IMG/VR virus record: IMGVR_UViG_3300002030_000028 | Length of the DNA: 64,000 bases | Direction: 5' to 3' (one strand) | Origin: a virus | Shown here: positions 6,916 to 18,564 of the stretch, piece by piece | Layout: every line of letters starts with the position of its first letter | Numbering within the stretch: the first letter of the stretch is position 1 | Program-made: the position numbers and the translations under genes | The notes under the pieces: model-generated | Told to the model about the DNA's origin: nothing | The model's input: only the letters and a program-made list of their open reading frames with translations | The model's database searches: none

Positions 6916-7179
6916 ATGCGAAAAATGAAAGATACGTCAATGTCAGAGAATGTCAGCTATAAAGCTCAACCTAAACCCGAGTGGAAGCCCGGCCCGATGT
7001 ATTACACGGCTGTTTATTGGCCGAGACGCGGGCGCCGAGGCTCAACAGTCAAGGACGAGGATGGCAACCCTCAACAATTCATAACAGAAGCCGTCGCTAA
7101 TATGGCGGCTGAGGCGGCTTGGCGAGAATCGCAAGACCTCATCGACGCTGGGGAATTTACTGGGAGTGATGGACGATGA
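6916..7179 (+). CDS. hypothetical protein (87 aa)
   Basis: ORF track entry. Confidence 0.5.
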   Translation: MRKMKDTSMSENVSYKAQPKPEWKPGPMYYTAVYWPRRGRRGSTVKDEDGNPQQFITEAVANMAAEAAWRESQDLIDAGEFTGSDGR

Positions 7180-7346
7180 GATCAAGTGAATGGTCAAGAC
7201 GAAAGCCTGAGATTGAGGCGAAGCTGAAGCGTTATGAGCGTGCCCTTAAGGAAATATCACAGGGGGATGGCTGCTATGGTGCGCAAGGATTTAAGTTCAA
7301 GAATATAGCGCGTGAGGCCCTTGGGCTTAGGAAAGTGGGTTGCTGA
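7176..7346 (+). CDS. hypothetical protein (56 aa)
   Basis: Hand-translated MRSSEWSRRKPEIEAKLKRYERALKEISQGDGCYGAQGFKFKNIAREALGLRKVGC. ATGA overlap. Confidence 0.35.
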   Translation: MRSSEWSRRKPEIEAKLKRYERALKEISQGDGCYGAQGFKFKNIAREALGLRKVGC

Positions 7347-7573
7347 TGTTGATCAAGAATAGGATATTTTATCTATACATCGGTAAGGATGTCGTGAGGC
7401 ATATGCCTTTGAATATTTGGTTTCTCATAGGACCAAGACCAGCGCTTATGAGAGAAGATGAAAATGGCCGTATGCTGTTAGCGGCTTTCGGCTTTGAGTT
7501 TATCTGGGGTGGTCACTTCTATTTGTGGAATGATGTGCGCGAGATAACGCTTAGGATGGCGGGGAAAGCCTGA
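7346..7573 (+). CDS. hypothetical protein (75 aa)
   Basis: Track ORF 7340-7573 trimmed to the ATG at 7346, which overlaps the upstream TGA. Confidence 0.4.
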   Translation: MLIKNRIFYLYIGKDVVRHMPLNIWFLIGPRPALMREDENGRMLLAAFGFEFIWGGHFYLWNDVREITLRMAGKA

Positions 7574-7652
7574 TGCGCGAGAGTTTGAGCGATATTTATC
7601 ACCGATGGGACGAGATTTTGGAATTTCTCCAAGAAGAATGAAAGGAAATATC

Positions 7653-8501
7653 ATGGGATTGACGATAACGAATGAAAACGGGAAACGGGTTAGCTTCAAA
7701 ATGTTCACGTTTCCGGGTGGCGAGCGGCATGTACAGATAAAGAATTTTGAGAAGTCGGATCTGTACAAAGTCCGCGCGGCCCTCAATTCTTCAGATGAGA
7801 TAATGGATCTTCTTCTGGCTTGCGATGCCCTTCAGGAGTTAAGCGGTGGGTGCCGTATAGCGCTCCTGATACCCTATATGCCGTATGCGCGTCAGGATCG
7901 CGTATGTGCGCCCGGTCAGCCTTTCTCCATGAGGGTCATGGCTGATATTCTGCATACAATTCGCAATGTCGTTTCGATCACGACTTACGATATTCATAGT
8001 GATGCGGGATGCGATCTCGTCAATGCCAATAATATTCCGGCCTGCGATTTGATTATGGCCAGTCATGAGATTTCAAGCCTAATCCGTGAGAAAGATACGG
8101 TTATCGTTTGCCCGGATGCTGGCGCCGTTAAGAGGGTTGATGAACTCGCGGACTTATTCGGTAAGGCGCGTGATGTTGTTTACTGCCAAAAGGTCAGAGA
8201 TCCCGAAACTGGATTCATAAGCGAGATCACCGTCGGTGCGGAAACGCTCGAGGGCAAGACGGCTTTCATAGCTGACGATATATGCGACGGCGGCAGAACG
8301 TTCACCATGATCGCGCGCGCGCTCAGGGAGCTATCTGTCGAGCGTGTGGTGCTTTACGTTACGCACGGTATCTTCAGTAAAGGCATTGAGGCCGTCCTGC
8401 GCGACACTGAGACGGACCAACTTCTCATCGACAAGATATTCACCACCGACACGATAACGAACCATGTTCACCCGAACCTTGAAGTAATCAAATTAAAATA
8501 G
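7653..8501 (+). CDS. ribose-phosphate pyrophosphokinase family enzyme (Prs-like; candidate ADPR pyrophosphokinase Adps of NARP1)
   Basis: LLIPYMPYARQDR, TYDIHSD and the PRPP-loop FIADDICDGGRTF. Trimmed to the ATG at 7653, 4 nt after AAAGGAAA. Adjacent to the Nampt-like gene. Confidence 0.85.
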   Translation: MGLTITNENGKRVSFKMFTFPGGERHVQIKNFEKSDLYKVRAALNSSDEIMDLLLACDALQELSGGCRIALLIPYMPYARQDRVCAPGQPFSMRVMADILHTIRNVVSITTYDIHSDAGCDLVNANNIPACDLIMASHEISSLIREKDTVIVCPDAGAVKRVDELADLFGKARDVVYCQKVRDPETGFISEITVGAETLEGKTAFIADDICDGGRTFTMIARALRELSVERVVLYVTHGIFSKGIEAVLRDTETDQLLIDKIFTTDTITNHVHPNLEVIKLK

Positions 8502-8525
8502 CGAAAATTGAAAAGGAAAACAGCT

Positions 8526-10025
8526 ATGCGCTTAAACCCACTGACCGCGATCGACTTCTATAAGGCCGATCACCGCCGACAATACCCTGAAGGGACGGAG
8601 TACGTTTATTCAAATTTCACCCCGCGCTCGTCAAAGCACGCGCCAGTGCTCGATGATTTTGACGACCGCGTGGTTTTCTTTGGCCTTCAGGGTTTCATCA
8701 AAAGCTTTCTGATTGATGCTTGGAATGAAAATTTCTTCAATCGCCCGATAGAGCAGGTTCTGTACGACTATCAGGTCCGGATGGATAAATCGCTTGGCGT
8801 CGGAGTGATATCGGTTGAGCACATCGAGGCGCTCCACCGTCTCGGTGCGCTGCCCATTCACATCAAGGCCCTACCCGAGGGGTCTCGGGTCAATATGCGG
8901 GTTCCGATGTTCACGATCGTAAACACGCTGCCGGAATTCTTCTGGTTGACGAATTATCTCGAGACCTCGATGAGCGCGGGTATTTGGAAATCATGCACCA
9001 CCGCCACGATAGCATTTGAATACCGTCGGCTGCTTACGCATTTCTACAAAGAGACCGGCGCGGATCTTCGCGATATCGCGGTCAACGTCCATGACTTCAG
9101 TTTTCGCGGTATGAGCGGAATACATGACGCTGCTCAATCGGGAGCTGGTCATCTGTTGAGCTTTGTCGGAACCGATACCGTTCAGGCAATTGATTATGTC
9201 GATGAATATTACTTCGGTGCCGAGAGTGGGCCGGCGCCGATCGGCCTGTCTGTGCCCGCGACAGAGCATAGCGTGATGTGCATGGGCACGAAGGGGGATG
9301 AGGTCGGAACGTTTAGGCGCCTAATCACCGAGACCTACCCCACGGGGATTGTCTCGATCGTGTCCGATACATGGGATTTCTGGCAGGTCATCACGGAATA
9401 TTCTGTGTTGCTGAAGGATGAGATATTAGCCAGAGAACCCAATAACCTCGGACTGGCCAAGGTGGTATTCAGACCAGACAGCGGTGATCCGGTCAAAATA
9501 CTATGCGGTGACCCCGCAGCGCCTCTGGGTTCTCCGGCCCGTAAAGGGGCTGTGGAATGTCTCTGGGACATTTTCGGCGGCACTCACACGCCTGCTGGCT
9601 ATATGCAGCTACATGAGCGCGTGGGCCTCATCTATGGGGATTCTATAACGCTTCAACGCGCGAAGGACATTATGGAACGATTGAAGCTGAAGGGCTTCGC
9701 GGCAAATAACGTGGTGTTCGGGGTCGGGAGTTACACGTACCAATACGTGACCCGCGATAGCTTTGGGTTCGCGATGAAAGCCACTTGGGGTCAGGTCGAC
9801 GGTGAAGGCCGGGATATATTCAAAGACCCGATTACGGATGATGGATTGAAGAAATCCGCCAAAGGTCTGTTGAGGGTTGAGGAGACAGATCAGGGCTTTG
9901 TGCTTCATGATCAACAAACCGCCGATCAGGAACGCGAAGGCGCCATGAGGTCGGTGTTCCATGAGGGACGGTTGATTGTTGAGGATACGTTTCAGCAAAT
10001 CCGTCACCGCCTTATGGGCTTTTAG
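8526..10025 (+). CDS. nicotinamide phosphoribosyltransferase family enzyme (NadV/Nampt-like; candidate Namat of NARP1)
   Basis: N-terminus NPLTAIDFYKADHRRQYPEGTEYVYSNFTPRS plus FRGMSG, PATEHSVM, RPDSGDP and IYGDSIT, all typical of the Nampt family. ATG at 8526 follows AAAAGGAAAA. Confidence 0.9.
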   Translation: MRLNPLTAIDFYKADHRRQYPEGTEYVYSNFTPRSSKHAPVLDDFDDRVVFFGLQGFIKSFLIDAWNENFFNRPIEQVLYDYQVRMDKSLGVGVISVEHIEALHRLGALPIHIKALPEGSRVNMRVPMFTIVNTLPEFFWLTNYLETSMSAGIWKSCTTATIAFEYRRLLTHFYKETGADLRDIAVNVHDFSFRGMSGIHDAAQSGAGHLLSFVGTDTVQAIDYVDEYYFGAESGPAPIGLSVPATEHSVMCMGTKGDEVGTFRRLITETYPTGIVSIVSDTWDFWQVITEYSVLLKDEILAREPNNLGLAKVVFRPDSGDPVKILCGDPAAPLGSPARKGAVECLWDIFGGTHTPAGYMQLHERVGLIYGDSITLQRAKDIMERLKLKGFAANNVVFGVGSYTYQYVTRDSFGFAMKATWGQVDGEGRDIFKDPITDDGLKKSAKGLLRVEETDQGFVLHDQQTADQEREGAMRSVFHEGRLIVEDTFQQIRHRLMGF

Positions 10026-10383: not shown

Positions 10384-10575
10384 TTAACATGGTGGTTCTT
10401 TTTTAAGAAAGCGATCGACCATAACCTCTGGGCTAGGCATCTCTAATCCTAATTCTTCAAGTTCATTTTTCGTATATTGAGCAGTCTCAATTAGCTTGCA
10501 CCTTTCCCTACATACGCGATACGCCACAGCAAGCCTCAAGGTAACGAAATCACTAGGGGGCATATGCATCATCAT
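10384..10575 (-). CDS. hypothetical protein (63 aa), co-transcribed with the XRE regulator
   Basis: ORF track entry. 4-nt overlap with the upstream minus-strand gene. Confidence 0.45.
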   Translation of the reverse strand: MMMHMPPSDFVTLRLAVAYRVCRERCKLIETAQYTKNELEELGLEMPSPEVMVDRFLKKEPPC

Positions 10576-10784
10576 TTTTGCTCAAGCTCCCTATCAAGCA
10601 GGAACTTGTATATAGCGGCCTGCGCTATACCGGGGACGTTCTTACGCCCGCTCTCAAATGCACTTATTTCGGGCGCGCTATAGGGTTTATTTTTCCCCGT
10701 TCTGTCCGATAGCCATTGACCAAATTCAATTTGCTTCATCTCCATGTGGGATCGGAAGTCCTTAAAGTCTTTTGCTGTCATCAT
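10572..10784 (-). CDS. XRE/Cro-type helix-turn-helix regulator (70 aa)
   Basis: MKQIEFGQWLSDRTGKNKPYSAPEISAFESGRKNVP is a typical HTH_XRE layout. GAGGAG SD. Divergent from the ribozyme operon. Confidence 0.7.
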   Translation of the reverse strand: MMTAKDFKDFRSHMEMKQIEFGQWLSDRTGKNKPYSAPEISAFESGRKNVPGIAQAAIYKFLLDRELEQK

Positions 10785-10833: not shown

Positions 10834-10886
10834 AATCAAGTTTTTTAATTTTAGGACTTGATTAAAAAGCATAAGTTATCTATATA
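10834..10886. promoter_or_regulatory. Divergent promoter/operator: inverted repeat AATCAAGT(10834-10841)/ACTTGATT(10856-10863) plus a plus-strand promoter
   Basis: Plus strand: TTGATT (10858-10863), 17-nt spacer, TATATA (10881-10886). The left arm read on the minus strand is also TTGATT, so both -35 boxes lie inside the palindrome. Confidence 0.5.
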
Positions 10887-11023
10887 GGTTGTATCAGAGA
10901 TGATCACGGCGGACGCGAAACCGCCACGGCATAAACCAAAACTCGACGCCACTACGCGGGAAACAACGACCCGCGCGAACGTGGGAATCGCGACGATGAA
11001 ACGAGACGCGGTGAGGGAGACAG

Positions 11024-11074
11024 GTCAACGGCAGATAAGCGAGCCGTTCTGATGAGATAGCTTAATTCGAAACC
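11024..11074 (+). ncRNA. Hammerhead-like element HHR-0, permuted (type III-like) variant, activity doubtful
   Basis: GUC 11024-11026. Stem I 11027-11032/11043-11048. CUGAUGA 11049-11055. 5-bp pseudoknot 11036-11040 with 11060-11064. UUCGAAAC (11066-11073) lies 3' of the core. Stems II and III are only 2-3 bp. Confidence 0.3.
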
Positions 11075-11085
11075 GAGGAAATATT

Positions 11086-11298
11086 ATGAAACTTACATAT
11101 TGGATTGCGAAGCAAGAAAATGACCATACTTGCTATGATGTGCGAGCCAAAACGCGCAAAGAATGTTCACGTCTAGTGTCTGAACTACATAACGCGAAAT
11201 ATTATGGCAAGCCTGAAAAGGTAACTGTCGAATATGAAGATGCTTTTGATCTTATGATTGAGTGTCGCGGGCATGAGGATTCAGGATATTGGGAATAG
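11086..11298 (+). CDS. hypothetical protein (70 aa), cistron 1 of the ribozyme operon
   Basis: ORF track entry. GAGGAAA SD. The TAG stop overlaps HHR-A stem II. Confidence 0.6.
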   Translation: MKLTYWIAKQENDHTCYDVRAKTRKECSRLVSELHNAKYYGKPEKVTVEYEDAFDLMIECRGHEDSGYWE

Positions 11299-11360
11299 TC
11301 GAAACCGGGTTTTACCCGGTCAGCCGAGGACCAGCCACCCGGCTCTGATGAGACAGGCTG
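11296..11360 (+). ncRNA. Type II hammerhead ribozyme HHR-A
   Basis: UAGUC-GAAAC (11301-11305). Stem III 11305-11309/11315-11319. Cleavage after C11321. Stem I 11322-11326/11340-11344. CUGAUGA 11345-11351. GAC pairs GUC. Pseudoknot CAGCC 11332-11336 with GGCUG 11356-11360. Confidence 0.85.
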
Positions 11361-11376
11361 CAATAAGGAATTTATC

Positions 11377-11609
11377 ATGAATATCGACGCAATTTTTACC
11401 GGCCTATATGCTTCAATCATGGTTCGTGACGGCAATGTCACCCATGTCGTTCAATACACGAAAGAAGAGGTTCGGGAGCTTTAACCGATGAGCAGCTTAC
11501 CTTTCTGATTAACGGTGAGATGCCAATCATCACGGACCCCGTCACGAGAGCTCAGACGGTTCATATCAGTATGGACATTCAGGCTCGCAGGGTTCTGTGT
11601 CCGAAATAA
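11377..11609 (+). pseudogene. Cistron 2: two short ORFs (11377-11484, 35 aa; 11520-11609, 29 aa) or one frameshifted gene of about 77 aa
   Basis: The span is 233 nt (3n+2). ...KEEVREL stop in one frame reads on in the -1 frame as ...LTDEQLTFLINGEMPIITDPVTRAQ... The TAA at 11607 is embedded in HHR-B. Confidence 0.35.
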
Positions 11610-11669
11610 TCGAAACCGCCCCTTGGCGGTCTGTCGGGAATGATCCCCCGGCACTGATGAGATAGATTG
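11607..11669 (+). ncRNA. Type II hammerhead ribozyme HHR-B
   Basis: UAAUC-GAAAC (11612-11616). Stem III 11616-11620/11625-11629. Cleavage after C11631. Stem I 11632-11638/11647-11653. CUGAUGA 11654-11660. GAU pairs AUC. Pseudoknot UGAUC 11641-11645 with GAUUG 11665-11669 (two wobbles). Confidence 0.8.
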
Positions 11670-11681
11670 AAAGGAAAAATT

Positions 11682-11909
11682 ATGCCTCACGTATCAACAT
11701 ACGATAGCGCGCCGTTTGCAAAAGCTTATAAAGCTACAGATAGACTAGAAACTTCTGATAGACGCGCTATGGCGAAGGTCGGGGTTGAGTATGCATATTA
11801 TTCATACTTGCTGTTTTTAGGCGTAAGTTATGAGACTGCAATTCAGGCATTTGAAGGAATAGGATCTAACGCTCATAATTTAAATGAGGTTGCTCGTAAA
11901 TTTCCATAA
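11682..11909 (+). CDS. hypothetical protein (75 aa), cistron 3
   Basis: Track ORF trimmed to the ATG at 11682, after GAAAGGAAAAA. Tandem TAA TAA stops. Confidence 0.55.
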   Translation: MPHVSTYDSAPFAKAYKATDRLETSDRRAMAKVGVEYAYYSYLLFLGVSYETAIQAFEGIGSNAHNLNEVARKFP

Positions 11910-11913
11910 TAAA

Positions 11914-11979
11914 TAATCGAAACCGGCGCGCACCGCCGGTCTGGCAAGGGTTAGCCGCCTGCCACTGATGAGATAGGCT
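11914..11979 (+). ncRNA. Type II hammerhead ribozyme HHR-C
   Basis: UAAUC-GAAAC (11919-11923). Stem III 11923-11928/11934-11939. Cleavage after C11941. Stem I 11942-11946/11960-11964. CUGAUGA 11965-11971. Pseudoknot AGCC 11953-11956 with GGCU 11976-11979. Confidence 0.85.
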
Positions 11980-11995
11980 TTTAAAGGATGAACAC

Positions 11996-12145
11996 ATGAC
12001 AAGATCAGAACGTTTCGCGAAAGGCTTTGTTGGCTTGCTTCTGGGTGGTTTCGCCATCTGGTGTTGGCTCAAGGCCGTACCCGCGTACCCGATGATTTTC
12101 GGAATGGGAGCGATGTATTTTTTCTATCGCGCCGCTGAAACCTAG
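11996..12145 (+). CDS. small membrane protein (49 aa), cistron 4
   Basis: Hand-translated MTRSERFAKGFVGLLLGGFAIWCWLKAVPAYPMIFGMGAMYFFYRAAET. AAAGGA SD. The TAG stop is embedded in HHR-D. Confidence 0.5.
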   Translation: MTRSERFAKGFVGLLLGGFAIWCWLKAVPAYPMIFGMGAMYFFYRAAET

Positions 12146-12205
12146 TCGAAACGCGCTCCGGCGCGTCAGCTTGGATTTATCACCATGCTCTGATGAGACA
12201 GATTG
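12143..12205 (+). ncRNA. Type II hammerhead ribozyme HHR-D
   Basis: UAGUC-GAAAC (12148-12152). Stem III 12152-12156/12161-12165 with a UCCG loop. Cleavage after C12167. Stem I 12168-12174/12183-12189 (one U-U mismatch). CUGAUGA 12190-12196. Pseudoknot is only weak (AUC/GAU). Confidence 0.8.
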
Positions 12206-12218
12206 AAAGGAAAACGGC

Positions 12219-12389
12219 ATGGGACCGACAAAGGTAGATATAGAGCCAGTGACTGATCAGGTCTTCTGGGTCACGGTAGACGGAAAGCGGTTTAAGAAAT
12301 TCACAAACATGGGATTAGCATGGGCGCACGCGAAAACGATAGTCGATTTCTATGAGTTTGAAGGCCGGACTGCTGAGTTAGTTCAATAA
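12219..12389 (+). CDS. hypothetical protein (56 aa), cistron 5
   Basis: Hand-translated MGPTKVDIEPVTDQVFWVTVDGKRFKKFTNMGLAWAHAKTIVDFYEFEGRTAELVQ. GAAAGGAAAA SD. The TAA stop is embedded in HHR-E. Confidence 0.5.
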   Translation: MGPTKVDIEPVTDQVFWVTVDGKRFKKFTNMGLAWAHAKTIVDFYEFEGRTAELVQ

Positions 12390-12447
12390 TCGAAACGCCT
12401 TCGGGCGTCTGTCGCATATGGGCAAGCGGCACTGATGAGATAGCCCA
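12387..12447 (+). ncRNA. Type II hammerhead ribozyme HHR-E
   Basis: UAAUC-GAAAC (12392-12396). Stem III 12396-12399/12404-12407 with a UUCG loop. Cleavage after C12409. Stem I 12410-12415/12426-12431. CUGAUGA 12432-12438. Pseudoknot UGGGC 12419-12423 with GCCCA 12443-12447. Confidence 0.85.
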
Positions 12448-12462
12448 CAGTGGAGAATGTAT

Positions 12463-12702
12463 ATGTCGAAAACATCCAAAACCATTAAGCGTGCTCGCCG
12501 GATCAACCTCCGGATGGAGCGCATAAAGAAAGCCGTACAGGCGACCGACGTGTTGCTTGATACCTATTTCGATATGCGGGCCTCGGAAATCGAGGACTTC
12601 AATGCTGATCTGGAGAAGATGACCACTACGGTTGACGCCGATAAAATGGCTGACACCGAGCCGCCTAAGAAGAAGGCAGGCAATTCCGGAAAAACCGGAT
12701 AG
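12463..12702 (+). CDS. hypothetical protein (79 aa), cistron 6
   Basis: Track ORF 12457-12702. The ATG at 12463 has better spacing from GGAG (12452-12455). The TAG stop is embedded in HHR-F. Confidence 0.55.
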   Translation: MSKTSKTIKRARRINLRMERIKKAVQATDVLLDTYFDMRASEIEDFNADLEKMTTTVDADKMADTEPPKKKAGNSGKTG

Positions 12703-12836
12703 TCGAAACCCAAAGATTCCCCACAGCTAAAGGCTTTAAGGGAATGGGGTACTGCTGAAATTCATCATTACCGAAAATCAGGAATACCCCTTGGGTCCGC
12801 GTAGACTTATCCCTGCGCGCTGATGAGACAGATAAG
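12700..12836 (+). ncRNA. Type II hammerhead ribozyme HHR-F with an 86-nt branched insertion in stem III
   Basis: UAGUC-GAAAC (12705-12709). Stem III base 12709-12713/12791-12795, with hairpins 12716-12745 and 12746-12790. Cleavage after C12797. Stem I 12798-12804/12813-12819. CUGAUGA 12820-12826. Pseudoknot CUUAUC 12806-12811 with GAUAAG 12831-12836. Confidence 0.85.
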
Positions 12837-12847
12837 GGAGATTGATA

Positions 12848-13051
12848 ATGAAAAAAGTGCCAAGTGTAATAATGCACCATACCTTCAGTAACGGTAGTGA
12901 ATTGGGCACCTCTGTTCATGCAGATGGGTTCAGAGTCGAGTATTATAACGCTAAGAACGGGCAATTTAGGACTTTGAGTAGCGGCCATAAAACACAGCAG
13001 TTATGCCGTCAATCATTCTGGGACATACGCGACCACATCTGGAGCAATTGA
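12848..13051 (+). CDS. hypothetical protein (67 aa), cistron 7
   Basis: Track ORF trimmed to the ATG at 12848, 7 nt after AAGGGAG. Confidence 0.55.
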   Translation: MKKVPSVIMHHTFSNGSELGTSVHADGFRVEYYNAKNGQFRTLSSGHKTQQLCRQSFWDIRDHIWSN

Positions 13052-13111
13052 ATTCGAAACGCCGCGAGGCGTCATGCCGAGATGACCACCGGCATCTGAT
13101 GAGATAGGTCA
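13051..13111 (+). ncRNA. Type II hammerhead ribozyme HHR-G (stem II weakened)
   Basis: AAUUC-GAAAC (13056-13060). Stem III 13060-13063/13068-13071 with a GCGA loop. Cleavage after C13073. Stem I 13074-13079/13090-13095. CUGAUGA 13096-13102. Pseudoknot UGACC 13083-13087 with GGUCA 13107-13111. The third stem II pair is U-U. Confidence 0.65.
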
Positions 13112-13124
13112 AGGAGAACATTCA

Positions 13125-13955
13125 ATGAAAAATGTAACCCATATCATTACCGGAGCTGCGATAGCGGCTTGCGGTTTGCTCATTCTCGCCGTTTCAGCAT
13201 CCATGAGCTTTCAGGGATATGAGCGGGAATTCGAAAGCCTGTCGGGTGCGGGCCTCATAGGGGTCGGTATCGCGGGTCTGGCTTTCCTCTGCGCTGGCGC
13301 GGTCAGGATATCCCTTAAACAGGATATGCGGGACGTCGCCATCATCGCGGCCATCATGGCTGCGGTGTGCTTTGCCGGAGACGTATACGGTAACAACCTC
13401 GCCACCGGCGGGGACGTGGAACAAGAGATACAGCAGGCCCTCGCGGGTCAAGCGGCTTATGATACCGCCGAGACAGCGCTTCCACTGGTGAGGCAACGCT
13501 TGAAAACATCTCAGTCAAAGCTCGATACCGTATCGGGTGATGACATTTGCGCCGCGCAGCGCCTTCTTAAAGCTGAAGGTTTGTACGGCGGCGCTATCGA
13601 TTGTCGCAACGGACCAGTGACCGAAGCGGCCATGCTGTCCTTTGGCAGTGATCTGCGGGTAAAAATAGCCACTCTCGAGGCATCAGAAATGAAGCATCAA
13701 GGGGTAGTTTCTGTGGGTCGGCCTACAGCACCCCATGATTTATCTAAATTGTGGGCCAGCATAATCGCTTTTTTACTGACCTCGCTCTCTATGGCGTCGT
13801 CAGCGATCGGCCTACCTCTCATGGTGGGTCAGAAGCGTGAGCCGAGCGTCGATGAGGCGTTCAGCGAGATTGAGGATAGCCTTGATGACATGGAGGACGG
13901 CCTTGGTGAGTTGTTTGACTTCGTTAAGGAGGTGAGCGAGCGCCGGGCCGCATAG
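13125..13955 (+). CDS. membrane protein with peptidoglycan-binding-like repeat (276 aa), cistron 8
   Basis: Several hydrophobic segments. CAAQRLLKAEGLYGGAIDCRNGPVTEAAMLSFG resembles the PG_binding_1 motif. AAGGAG SD. The TAG stop is embedded in HHR-H. Confidence 0.6.
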   Translation: MKNVTHIITGAAIAACGLLILAVSASMSFQGYEREFESLSGAGLIGVGIAGLAFLCAGAVRISLKQDMRDVAIIAAIMAAVCFAGDVYGNNLATGGDVEQEIQQALAGQAAYDTAETALPLVRQRLKTSQSKLDTVSGDDICAAQRLLKAEGLYGGAIDCRNGPVTEAAMLSFGSDLRVKIATLEASEMKHQGVVSVGRPTAPHDLSKLWASIIAFLLTSLSMASSAIGLPLMVGQKREPSVDEAFSEIEDSLDDMEDGLGELFDFVKEVSERRAA

Positions 13956-14013
13956 TCGAAACCCGCTTCGGCGGGTCCATCGGGGATAATCTTCCGATGC
14001 TGATGAGACAGAT
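13953..14013 (+). ncRNA. Type II hammerhead ribozyme HHR-H
   Basis: UAGUC-GAAAC (13958-13962). Stem III 13962-13966/13971-13975 with a UUCG loop. Cleavage after C13977. Stem I 13978-13983/13994-13999. CUGAUGA 14000-14006. 4-bp pseudoknot AUCU 13989-13992 with AGAU 14010-14013. Confidence 0.8.
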
Positions 14014-14027
14014 AAAGGAGAATATTT

Positions 14028-14309
14028 ATGGGAAAATTCATTTATCATCACCCAAGCCGAAGAGTTGATGACTATCGTTTCTTGTCTTTGAGCAAATATA
14101 AAGCTGGACATACGCCGTTAAGTTACGAGGTCGCTATGCGAGGACTAGAAAATCTGGGTCTTTATTGTGATCCTTATTTTTCTGATTTGACGCATCATAG
14201 GCGAAACGAACGCCCAGATTTAAATGACCTGTCTGTGATCTCTTATTGCAAGATACGCGATGAAAGCTCTGGCATGGTTTGCGATGAATTATTACAAATA
14301 AAAACTTAG
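14028..14309 (+). CDS. hypothetical protein (93 aa), cistron 9
   Basis: ORF track entry. AAAGGAG SD. The TAG stop is embedded in HHR-I. Confidence 0.6.
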   Translation: MGKFIYHHPSRRVDDYRFLSLSKYKAGHTPLSYEVAMRGLENLGLYCDPYFSDLTHHRRNERPDLNDLSVISYCKIRDESSGMVCDELLQIKT

Positions 14310-14386
14310 TCGAAACGCTGTTTTGCGAAATTTCGTAATTCGGCGTCTGCCGGAGATTGGTTCCCCGGTACTGATGAGACAGACCA
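14307..14386 (+). ncRNA. Type II hammerhead ribozyme HHR-I (extended stem III)
   Basis: UAGUC-GAAAC (14312-14316). Stem III 14316-14320/14341-14345 plus inner helix 14325-14328/14333-14336. Cleavage after C14347. Stem I 14348-14353/14365-14370. CUGAUGA 14371-14377. Pseudoknot UGGUU 14358-14362 with GACCA 14382-14386. Confidence 0.85.
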
Positions 14387-15113: not shown

Positions 15114-15140
15114 AGCCCGCCACGTGCGGGCTTTTTTTTT
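15114..15140 (+). terminator. Rho-independent terminator closing the ribozyme operon
   Basis: GCCCGC (15115-15120) pairs with GCGGGC (15126-15131), followed by nine T residues (15132-15140). Confidence 0.8.
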
Positions 15141-15148
15141 GCCGCGTT

Positions 15149-16666
15149 ATGACCCATAAGGGTGAAAACGAGGAGTTGATGTTTATGGCCAAGGGTAGCG
15201 CAAAAAGCTCAAGTACAATTCAGAAGGCTATTCTGAGCAGCCGGGGCTCATCGGGCTCTTCAAATCTTGGCGGCATTAAGAGCCGCTCGACCAGTATCAC
15301 CAAGCCCGGCGGTACGTCGGCGGTACGGCATTACGCTGGTTTCATCGCCACGCGTGAGCGAAACCCCAAGCTTCAACGCCACAAACGCTATGAAGAGTTT
15401 GGCGAGATGCTTCTCAATCAGCCCGTGGTGGCAGCGAGCGTTCGGTTATTTCTTCAAATCGTTAAAGGCATCGAGTGGAACGTTGTGCCGATCGAGGGTG
15501 ATGCGGACTCGAAACGATACGCTGAAGATCTTGAGGAGGTGATTGATAATCTCGAGAGCGGCTGGCCTCAAATTGTTCAACGTTTGTCAGCTTTCGTATA
15601 TTGGGGTTTTAGCATAAGCGAGTGGACAGCGAAGCAGCTCGAGAGCGGGATTGTGGGCTTCAGCGATATCGAGCCCCGTTCTCAACATACCATTCACCGT
15701 TGGGAAATTCAGGATACGGGGAAGATTACCGCCGTTACGCAGCTAAATCCCAACACCGGGGAAGAGCTATTGCTTGAGCGCCGGCGTCTCATATACGCGG
15801 TCGACAACAGCCTGAATGATGACCCGGAGGGGCTTGGCCTGTTTAGGCAGCTGTATTCGGCATACCGGCGTATTGAGAATTACAAGGTCATCGAGGAGAT
15901 TGGTTTTGATACCGACCTGCGCGGGGTGCCGATCGTCAAAGCGCCCCTCGAGGAGCTCAATCAAATGGTTGAGGAGGAAATCATAACGCCTGAGCGCCGT
16001 GAGGAAATCCTATCCGTGTATGAGAACTTCCTGAAAAACCATCAGCGCAAGAAGTCTCAAGGCATGATGATCGATAGTGAGACCTATCTTGATAACGATC
16101 GTAATCCTAGCAACATTCAGAAGTTTGAGATTGAGCTTCTGCGCGGCGATAGCTCAGGCATCATGACGGATTTGCAGAACGCCATTAACCGCGAGCGCAA
16201 CAACATAGCGATGATTGCGAACACGGGATTTCTGCTTCTGGGTGAAGACGGCGCGGGCTCTCTGGCCCTAAGTGAAACGAAGATGGAAACGATATTCATG
16301 TTCGTGAGCTCAACGCTTCAGGATCTGGCGTTCATTCTGAAGCGCGATATGTTCAGATCAGTGGCAAAGCTGAACGGCTGGAATGAGGCTTCGCTGCCGG
16401 ATCTCGATTACGAAAAACCGACAGTTCAGGATATCATCAAAATCACGGAGGCGCTGCGTAACACCTCGACGGCCTTTGGTCCGCTGCCCTCAACGTCTCA
16501 AACCATCAACGAAATCTTCTCAATCATGGGTCTTGAGCCTATACCGGAAGAGGAGTTTGATGCTCAGGACGACGCCCTATTGCCGGGCTTTGATGCTGGC
16601 GGCACTGGGGATCAGCTCGATATGTTCAACGAACCAAAGGAGGAGCCTGAAGATGGCGACGATTGA
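15149..16666 (+). CDS. portal protein (putative)
   Basis: 505 aa, first large gene of the morphogenesis block, acidic C-terminus. Start is uncertain (15149, 15179 or 15185). Assigned by size and position plus general resemblance, no diagnostic motif. Confidence 0.6.
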   Translation: MTHKGENEELMFMAKGSAKSSSTIQKAILSSRGSSGSSNLGGIKSRSTSITKPGGTSAVRHYAGFIATRERNPKLQRHKRYEEFGEMLLNQPVVAASVRLFLQIVKGIEWNVVPIEGDADSKRYAEDLEEVIDNLESGWPQIVQRLSAFVYWGFSISEWTAKQLESGIVGFSDIEPRSQHTIHRWEIQDTGKITAVTQLNPNTGEELLLERRRLIYAVDNSLNDDPEGLGLFRQLYSAYRRIENYKVIEEIGFDTDLRGVPIVKAPLEELNQMVEEEIITPERREEILSVYENFLKNHQRKKSQGMMIDSETYLDNDRNPSNIQKFEIELLRGDSSGIMTDLQNAINRERNNIAMIANTGFLLLGEDGAGSLALSETKMETIFMFVSSTLQDLAFILKRDMFRSVAKLNGWNEASLPDLDYEKPTVQDIIKITEALRNTSTAFGPLPSTSQTINEIFSIMGLEPIPEEEFDAQDDALLPGFDAGGTGDQLDMFNEPKEEPEDGDD

Positions 16667-17583: not shown

Positions 17584-18564
17584 ATGCTTGAAGAGAAGCA
17601 ATTCAGAAGAATACTCAATCGTCAAGAAAGACGAATTAGACGTGTATTCACATTGGCTCTTGAGGAGTACAAAGATAATCTTAATCTATCTCAAATAATA
17701 CGCTCTCTTGAGGCTGGTAATATACCACAAGCTTTAGTTGAGGTTGAAACTGTAGCCCGAACAGTGACCTCAGCATCGCAGCAAGCTTTTATCTCAACCG
17801 CACAGGCAATAACAGCTTCTATTCCCACCACTCAAATTGCATTTAATGTTGTTAACGATCAGGCCGTATCTGTTCTTAGAACAAATGATCTTCGCTTCGT
17901 TCGTAACTTCACCGAGCAGCAAATAGCCGCCACGAGATTGGCCTTAACTGAGGGCGTAAGGGAGGGCCTCGGGCCGCGCGCGCTTGCGCGATCGTTTCGG
18001 GATAGCATTGGTTTGACAGAAAAGGGGGAGGCATCAGTTCGTAATTATCGAAGACTTCTTCAGCGCATAGGACAAGATGATATTCCAAAAAAGATCCAGC
18101 GTGAATCTTTATCTAGAGCCCTGCGTGACCGAAGAAGTGATAGCCTATTGAGGAGGCTTGTAAGAGAAGAAAAGAGCCTTACAGCAGCTGAGATTGATCG
18201 TATGGTTGGGCTCTATCGTGACCGGGCGATTAAGCATAGAGCCTTAACAATCGCTCGAACTGAAGCGCTATCAAGCGTTCATCAAGGCCAAGAAAACGCA
18301 ATTCGGGAGGCTATCCAAAATGGAAAACTCAATCATGAAACCCTTGTATCCGAGTGGCTAACCCGTGTTGATGGTCGTGAACGTGAGTGGCATGAGGCCC
18401 TGAATGGCGTGATGGTTCCTTACGGCACAGCCTTTGAAAACGAAAAGGGCCTCATCATGCACCCCGGTGATAGATCAGCCTCGGCGGAGAATATCATAAA
18501 TTGCAGATGTGTTCGCACAATACGGATACGCAGTCAGGCTTTTGTCGAGCGTCTCGCGGCATAG
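17584..18564 (+). CDS. head morphogenesis protein, SPP1 gp7 / Mu F family
   Basis: 326 aa. C-terminal ...SAENIINCRCV... matches the conserved NCRC signature of this family. Lies downstream of the portal gene. Confidence 0.7.
   Translation: MLEEKQFRRILNRQERRIRRVFTLALEEYKDNLNLSQIIRSLEAGNIPQALVEVETVARTVTSASQQAFISTAQAITASIPTTQIAFNVVNDQAVSVLRTNDLRFVRNFTEQQIAATRLALTEGVREGLGPRALARSFRDSIGLTEKGEASVRNYRRLLQRIGQDDIPKKIQRESLSRALRDRRSDSLLRRLVREEKSLTAAEIDRMVGLYRDRAIKHRALTIARTEALSSVHQGQENAIREAIQNGKLNHETLVSEWLTRVDGREREWHEALNGVMVPYGTAFENEKGLIMHPGDRSASAENIINCRCVRTIRIRSQAFVERLAA

Follow-up and report, generated by a model that had tools for sequence, protein, structure and literature searches.

Why should a phage operon carry a ribozyme at each of its internal gene junctions? 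The question is raised by the IMG/VR virus record IMGVR_UViG_3300002030_000028, of which a stretch of 64,000 nucleotides (hereafter the window) was analysed. Ten successive cistrons of this ~65-kb tailed phage (c1 to c10) are separated by nine elements (HH1 to HH9), one at every internal junction, with all nine junctions inside 3.1 kb. The original prediction, drawn from the sequence and its open reading frames (ORFs), held that these spacers are complete type II hammerhead ribozymes that would divide one polycistronic transcript into monocistronic RNAs. Our analysis indicates that the nine elements are almost certainly true type II hammerheads. Most of them probably cut the operon transcript, and the likeliest role is processing into monocistronic messages independently of the host.

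The identity of the elements was assessed with two kinds of covariance models. Rfam 15 was run across the whole window, with a gathering score of 37 bits for the type II family (RF02276, Hammerhead_II). For the region from 10 to 16 kb, Rfam matches were reported by E-value, which brings in sites under the gathering score. Six of the nine elements match RF02276 at 37 bits or more (39.0-54.7 bits), all on the + strand. HH1 (35.2 bits) and HH7 (32.5 bits) fall just under the gathering score. The match of HH6 is low (21.5 bits) because the model is unable to span an insert in stem III and covers the 3' part of the element only. A second model, R1, was made from the nine local copies and searched unfiltered on both strands of the 64 kb. 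R1 scores the nine elements at 59-85 bits, a match that is given by the construction of the model, and the best unrelated match in the window reaches 11.9 bits. All ten matches of the 12-mer CTGATGAGAYAG in the 64 kb fall on the + strand from 11049 to 14382, compared with an expectation of 0.00 from 100 shuffles. Full-length alignment to RF02276 positions 1-66 shows stems I and III closed by loops and stem II open, which is the type II topology. None of the other hammerhead models of the clan beats RF02276 on these elements. No further ribozymes or RNA families were found in the window at E<=0.05, and no tRNAs. The elements share with published type II hammerheads (RF02276; PMC3088659) the core, the three-helix junction opened at stem II and a pseudoknot that links loop I to the 3' tail and has at least 4 bp in most type II members. 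Nothing essential differs, although the local subtype has a fixed 3-bp stem II (UAR-UC/GA-Y-AG) whose 5' strand doubles as a stop codon, and the stem III insert of HH6 is unusually large.

The alignment of the nine elements combines an invariant core with helices that change in sequence. Invariant columns read CGAAAC, GTC and CTGATGAGA-AG. CUGAUGA (C3-U4-G5-A6-N7-G8-A9) is identical in all nine copies, as are the A15.1-U16.1 pair (columns 9-97, always AU) and C17. Pairs were counted for stems II, III and I and for the pseudoknot, 20 pairs in all. Paired cells amount to 92.6%, compared with 71.3% in shuffled alignments (0 of 500 shuffles as high) and 28-39% when the partners are slid by 1-3 columns. 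Compensatory changes affect 14 of the 20 pairs, including 6/7 in stem I and 3/5 in stem III. The 1.1-2.1 pair is UA in four copies, AU in three and CG in two. Stem II has 3 bp only (G10.1-C11.1, A10.2-U11.2, Y10.3-R11.3), and its third pair covaries, with GAC facing UAG and GAU facing UAA (GC in five copies, AU in three, one mismatch). In the pseudoknot, five bases of loop I pair with the G of GAYAG and the four bases after it; 93% of its cells are paired, and four of its five pairs are compensatory. Minimum free energy (MFE) folds show stems III and I in most copies, and stem III of HH9 has an additional inner hairpin. The original prediction had described the invariant core, the covarying stems I and III and 1.1-2.1 pair, the pseudoknot strand and the open stem II, all of which these counts and alignments bear out. 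Its nine cleavage sites are exact, with GUC preceding each, and its UA(G/A)UC motif holds in every spacer except that of HH7, which reads AAUUC.

Elements that are repeated, intergenic and rich in hairpins could also represent a repeat of the repetitive extragenic palindromic (REP) or miniature inverted-repeat transposable element (MITE) kind. Such a repeat would resemble a hammerhead without being catalytic and could act as an RNA stabiliser or protein-binding site. We consider this origin extremely improbable. All copies lie on one strand, in register with stop and start codons, and match a curated ribozyme model. Furthermore, only the core is conserved while the stems differ yet still pair, which indicates a selected RNA fold and not a copied DNA repeat.

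Apart from the nine elements, a single match to R1 in the window rises above the 11.9-bit background. It is a degenerate copy in the operon leader, which the original prediction touched with its start coordinate of 11024 and did not describe. The copy retains the AAUC strand of stem II, GUC (11024-11026), stem I (ACGGC/GCCGU), CUGAUGA-GAUAG and an intact pseudoknot of 5 bp (UAAGC/GCUUA). The segment of G12-A13-A14 and stem III is unrecognisable (AAUC-GCGA-C), with no stem III beside GUC, and the copy is for this reason not counted as a hammerhead. It has no Rfam match at E<=10, and its MFE fold is unlike a hammerhead. Two active forms of the leader copy were considered and rejected. As a type II ribozyme using GAAA at 10916, 10958 or 10996, it would have a stem III of at most 2-3 bp. 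As a type III ribozyme with stem II closed, using a stray UUCGAAAC directly after the copy (11066-11073), it has no credible stem III. Neither form is matched by Rfam. The leader copy looks like a decayed tenth copy or a recombination scar.

The hammerheads are fitted closely to the genes around them. The stop codon of the upstream gene occupies ribozyme positions 11.5-11.3 in eight of the nine copies, and its third base pairs with 10.3, which is C for UAG and U for UAA. The UAG stop of c1 lies at these positions in HH1, for instance, and a UAA (11607-11609) is embedded in HH2. The exception is HH7, where a UGA stop (13049-13051) lies two bases further 5'. At all nine junctions, GAYAG and AUG are 16-20 nt apart, and a Shine-Dalgarno sequence (SD; AAGGA/GGAG) lies between them, 5-10 nt ahead of the AUG. 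The predicted untranslated region (UTR) at the 5' end after cleavage is 50-55 nt at all nine junctions. The predicted 3' tail past the stop codon is 20-25 nt, apart from HH6 (95 nt) and HH9 (38 nt). The stop-codon overlap extends to the wider family: of 142 viral matches among the matches listed, 72 have a stop codon at ribozyme positions 11.5-11.3. Of those 72 stop codons, 86% end an ORF of at least 30 codons, compared with 19% for random TAA/TAG. The overlap receives no mention in the 2011 description of type II hammerheads (PMC3088659).

We propose that each junction would act as RNA polymerase passes it. The ribozyme would fold stem II, stem III, stem I and the loop I pseudoknot, and the folded junction would then cut itself after C17. 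The products would be joined by the 3-bp stem II only, so that they would be expected to come apart, making cleavage in effect irreversible. One transcript would thereby give about ten messenger RNAs (mRNAs). Each would end with its own stop codon and a stem III hairpin carrying a 2',3'-cyclic phosphate (2',3'-cP), and its 5' end would be a 5'-OH followed by the stem I hairpin, with a leader of uniform length (50-55 nt). A likely benefit would be processing without a host enzyme, with the stability and translation of each gene uncoupled from its neighbours. New genes slotted between junction elements might be a further benefit. We estimate a probability of about 0.8 that most of the hammerheads cut the operon transcript into single-gene mRNAs. 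This estimate is based on the perfect cores, the selection on every helix, the precedent of clusters tested elsewhere and the expected release of the products by a stem II of 3 bp. The purpose of the cutting, and cutting by all nine copies in vivo, we infer.

The chemistry of the predicted ends also permits another fate. The 5'-OH and 2',3'-cP ends are substrates of the ligase RtcB, and cutting followed by religation, or joining by such a host ligase, could turn the units between ribozymes into circular or spliced RNAs. This seems very unlikely, given that each unit is an ordinary gene with SD, ORF and stop codon and that a 3-bp stem II favours release. Perreault et al. raised the possibility, and such products were sought and not found (PMC3088659).

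Several observations weigh against efficient processing into single-gene mRNAs. HH7 has a U-U mismatch (10.3-11.3) in its 3-bp stem II, the weakest of the set. The MFE folds of HH3 and HH5 are without stem I. HH6 has an insert of ~80 nt in stem III (~12712-12790) whose two hairpins make a three-way junction. Given these features, some copies may be slow or inactive. The leader copy has no recognisable G12-A14, so that c1 probably keeps an unprocessed 5' end. The accessibility of the SD before and after cleavage (ViennaRNA partition function, no pseudoknots) shows no consistent gain, and the benefit of translation insulation thus lacks computational support. A 5'-OH end can also favour decay over stability where the bacterium has RNase J, as for glmS in B. 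subtilis. The putative promoter from which the operon would be transcribed was read by eye. It was not called by a consensus promoter scan, whose rule demands a T as the sixth base of the second hexamer. The HH6 element has a folding z-score of -3.38, and its insert has no Rfam match; a regulatory domain, a sensor domain or a neutral insertion are all conceivable.

The mismatch in HH7 and the weaker features of HH3, HH5 and HH6 would also fit partial or conditional processing. Some ribozymes might be efficient and others less so, or cutting might compete with translation, which would result in a tuned mix of mono- and oligocistronic RNAs. Because the upstream stop codon forms part of stem II, a ribosome at the end of that gene would sit on G12-A14 and on half of stem III. 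It is plausible that the terminating ribosome and the folding ribozyme compete, and the stop codon lies at 11.5-11.3 in eight of nine copies and in about half of the family members. Perreault et al. suggested that slower phage hammerhead variants might be regulated (PMC3088659). We regard partial processing as a possible but tentative explanation. The tested prophage clusters cut at all sites (PMC3088659). The perfect cores and covarying stems of all nine copies argue for selection on activity at every site.

Division of a polycistronic transcript at each gene junction has parallels in other systems. In the early transcript of phage T7, reportedly described by Dunn and Studier, RNase III is said to cut the polycistronic RNA at every intercistronic hairpin, giving monocistronic mRNAs with structured ends. 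A host enzyme is needed there, whereas the RNA of the window would cut itself and leave 5'-OH and 2',3'-cP ends. In the RiboJ insulator, reportedly introduced by Lou et al. in 2012, a ribozyme upstream of the ribosome-binding site is said to trim off variable upstream RNA, leaving a standard 5' UTR with a hairpin cap. Whereas RiboJ is an engineered single unit taken from the hammerhead of a satellite RNA, the window has a natural serial array. The closest precedent comes from prophages. Perreault et al. (2011) found clustered hammerheads flanking single prophage genes and proposed processing to single-gene mRNAs (PMC3088659). Cleavage in vitro was complete for ~2-kb polycistronic transcripts from three bacteria, and a triple from A. 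tumefaciens was cleaved in E. coli (PMC3088659). Type II hammerheads also cleave in vivo in Desulfovibrio vulgaris (PMC8782182). Hammerhead and twister ribozymes are enriched near Mu-like phage genes and near each other, for a biological reason that is "still unknown" (PMC10085705; PMC6765202). The prophage clusters of Agrobacterium tumefaciens, Azorhizobium caulinodans and Clostridium scindens (PMC3088659) have same-strand hammerheads that delimit single genes of varying identity, as in the window. The tested clusters are triples, whereas the window has nine complete copies and one degenerate copy with near-constant spacing to stop and start codons.

Long arrays also occur elsewhere. A pattern scan for the subtype returned at least 119 IMG/VR contigs and at least 120 bacterial-genome loci, with hosts including Firmicutes, Acidobacteria, Proteobacteria, Chloroflexi and others. 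Among the matches listed, R1 was run on all 119 contigs from IMG/VR and on 100 of the 120 loci from bacterial genomes. Arrays among the matches listed have eight copies (L022), seven (L114), six (L023, L140) or five (L079, L056), with at least seven in L150, and the nine of the window form the longest. Wherever these arrays have genes between the copies, the junction layout is that of the window; in L022, L114 and L023 the stop codon is likewise followed by hammerhead, SD and AUG, with periods of 240-870 nt. The arrays of L022, L114, L023 and L140 share the motif subtype with the window but carry unrelated cargo and 1-3 copies fewer. Consistently, no homologues of the window's cargo proteins were found in the other hammerhead-bearing loci scanned. 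The original prediction judged a run of nine that delimits every cistron of one operon to be unusual. The array is unusually long, but the weight given to rarity is not supported, in view of the clusters published in 2011 (PMC3088659) and the arrays of 8, 7, at least 7 and 6 copies among the matches listed. The nine copies are the tail of a known distribution, and the arrangement, first described in prophages in 2011, is not a new kind of system. L150 (7053-7916; Marinithermofilum abyssi, NZ_BMHQ01000020.1) is a separate observation. Its tandem type II hammerheads have a period of 122-146 nt, with G-rich spacers of ~70 nt that contain no ORFs, and lie downstream of an ORF. This array would delimit small RNAs and not mRNAs; the locus ends at 8000, and the array may go on.

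Comparison of c6, c7 and c8 with related loci bears on how genes enter such arrays. Homologues of c8 (~50% identical) occur in Hyphomonas-like prophages and other contigs (L240-L250). A c6 homologue (42-49% identity) adjoins the c8 homologue upstream in L240, L243, L245, L246, L247 and L249. The pair lies at 7732-8816 in L240 and at 5950-7668 in L250, and the spacer between the two genes in the L240-L249 contigs is structured and 76-78 nt long. No hammerheads were found beside the c8 homologues in L240-L250. In the window, one extra gene (c7), flanked by HH6 and HH7, separates c6 and c8; in L250, two unrelated small genes separate the homologues. Where the window has hammerheads, L250 has a junction element of a non-hammerhead kind, TAA-GAUUUCACCGGUU-hairpin-UUCCCGUGCAAUCCGCACGA. 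The comparison indicates that genes have been gained or lost between junction elements, and it hints at cassette-like behaviour of the genes so placed. A broader proposal is that the junction RNAs define portable, self-insulating cassettes, by which the phage could gain or lose single genes at any junction with the neighbours undisturbed. This we consider doubtful.

The second junction motif is ~65 nt long and reads ACCGG-N4-GC hairpin-YUUCCC(C)GU. It is placed after the stop codon and before the SD, and its hairpin covaries. Copies occupy three successive junctions in L250 (6157-6238, 6419-6494, 6783-6858), and others lie in L240 (7924-8000), L247 (6191-6267) and L249 (3572-3649). The spacer at 5872-5949 in L250 has a different hairpin without the ACCGG...UUCCCGU signature. 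Rfam gave no match to the motif, either in L247, L249 and L250 (E<=0.1) or in L240 from 7000 to 9600 (E<=1), and a loose pattern scan of IMG/VR gave only single matches, probably due to chance. The motif could be a candidate self-cleaving or processing element, interchangeable in function with the hammerhead.

The coordinates of the elements, the operon genes and the surrounding phage genes are collected in Table 1.

Table 1. Hammerhead elements, operon features and phage context genes in the window.
Feature	Position	Strand	Basis and remarks
HH1	11296-11360	+	Predicted cleavage after 11321; RF02276 11297-11362, 35.2 bits; R1 70.6 bits
HH2	11607-11669	+	Predicted cleavage after 11631; RF02276 11608-11671, 54.7 bits; R1 84.6 bits
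HH3	11914-11980	+	Predicted cleavage after 11941; RF02276 11915-11982, 40.6 bits; R1 64.8 bits
HH4	12143-12205	+	Predicted cleavage after 12167; RF02276 12144-12207, 40.9 bits; R1 80.6 bits
HH5	12387-12447	+	Predicted cleavage after 12409; RF02276 12388-12449, 39.0 bits; R1 65.6 bits
HH6	12700-12836	+	Predicted cleavage after 12797; RF02276 12769-12837, 21.5 bits; R1 59.3 bits (12700-12843)
HH7	13051-13111	+	Predicted cleavage after 13073; RF02276 13052-13113, 32.5 bits; R1 64.4 bits
HH8	13953-14015	+	Predicted cleavage after 13977; RF02276 13954-14017, 51.8 bits; R1 83.7 bits
HH9	14307-14386	+	Predicted cleavage after 14347; RF02276 14308-14388, 44.5 bits; R1 67.0 bits
Degenerate hammerhead-like element, leader	10985-11072	+	R1 34.9 bits
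Divergent ORF, 70 aa, possibly a lambda-repressor-like helix-turn-helix regulator	10572-10784	-	Sub-threshold Pou-domain match, E 0.0085; function weakly inferred; context, outside the array
Putative promoter	10858-10886	+	TTGATT-17 nt-TATATA with AT-rich gap; read by eye
Cistron 1, 70 aa, no family	11086-11298	+	ORF; PHROG and Pfam searches
Cistron 2, ORFs 11377-11484 (35 aa) and 11520-11609 (29 aa) in different frames	11377-11609	+	ORF reading
Cistron 3, 75 aa	11682-11909	+	ORF; PHROG and Pfam searches
Cistron 4, 49 aa, hydrophobic	11996-12145	+	ORF
Cistron 5, 56 aa	12219-12389	+	ORF
Cistron 6, 79 aa	12463-12702	+	Homologue directly upstream of c8 homologue in other contigs
Cistron 7, 67 aa	12848-13051	+	ORF; absent between c6 and c8 in relatives
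Cistron 8, 276 aa, predicted membrane protein	13125-13955	+	Profile search; weak PG_binding_1 signal
Cistron 9, 93 aa	14028-14309	+	ORF
Cistron 10, 208 aa	14401-15027	+	Identical protein recorded from a 65,661-nt JGI contig
Intrinsic terminator, 7-bp GC stem and U8	15114-15140	+	Terminator scan; closes the operon
Large terminase (TerL), 834 aa	1927-4431		Profile match
Phosphoribosyl pyrophosphate (PRPP) synthetase and nicotinamide phosphoribosyltransferase (NAMPT), NAD salvage pair	7605-10025		Between terminase and hammerhead operon
Mu-type portal (Portal_Mu, PF06074)	15149-16666		E 1.3e-19; starts 9 nt past the operon terminator
Mu F-like head protein (Phage_Mu_F)	17584-18564		2.4 kb beyond the portal start

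The region from 10.89 to 15.14 kb constitutes a self-contained operon, an insert bounded by its own terminator and with a probable promoter of its own. The terminator is the only strong one on the + strand, and promoter-like matches inside the operon are at chance level (6 compared with 7.1 expected). The cistron proteins have no PHROG match and only sub-threshold Pfam matches. The GC content at third codon positions (GC3) ranges from 0.28 to 0.65 among the cistrons, a spread that suggests mixed gene origins. The original prediction assumed a single cistron per unit, which holds except between HH1 and HH2, where c2 consists of two tiny ORFs or one frameshifted gene. Frame 0 is free of stop codons from ~11427 up to the UAA at 11607-11609, and c2 would be one gene of ~75 aa if there were a 1-nt frame change near 11480, at the run GCTTTAA. 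A frameshift, an assembly error or a pseudogene are possible there. On the minus strand, the stem III hairpins of HH2 (11613-11632) and HH3 (11920-11942), each followed by UUUCGAUUAUUU, score as terminator-like. These sites possibly block antisense transcription, or the resemblance is a coincidence.

The operon is placed between terminase and NAD-salvage genes on one side and the Mu-like portal gene on the other, and tail genes are also present in the window. The presence of Portal_Mu and Phage_Mu_F near the array agrees with the published Mu-like association (PMC10085705). The portal is only ~35% identical to the portals of Roseobacter phage RDJL Phi 1, Rhizobium phages and Pseudomonas KPP23-like phages. 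No close relatives of the phage or operon were found by blastn against 50,697 phage records, by protein-seeded scans of IMG/VR (c8, portal) and JGI metagenomes (portal), by an exact 38-mer search or by exact-protein look-ups. Residues ~274-343 of TerL give LAGLIDADG_3 and Hom_end homing-endonuclease signals, suggestive of an intein or of the insertion of an endonuclease domain.

The novelty of the array is modest, as it is a long and very regular case of a known phenomenon. Its value lies elsewhere. Reviews call it unresolved what the hundreds of phage and prophage hammerheads are for (PMC6765202; PMC10085705), and this operon offers a compact and very regular system in which to study that question. 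It combines nine perfect cores, a natural "dead" copy, graded stem quality, the insert of HH6 and built-in stop codons. The c6-c8 pair, followed across contigs, adds a concrete example of a gene inserted between such elements.

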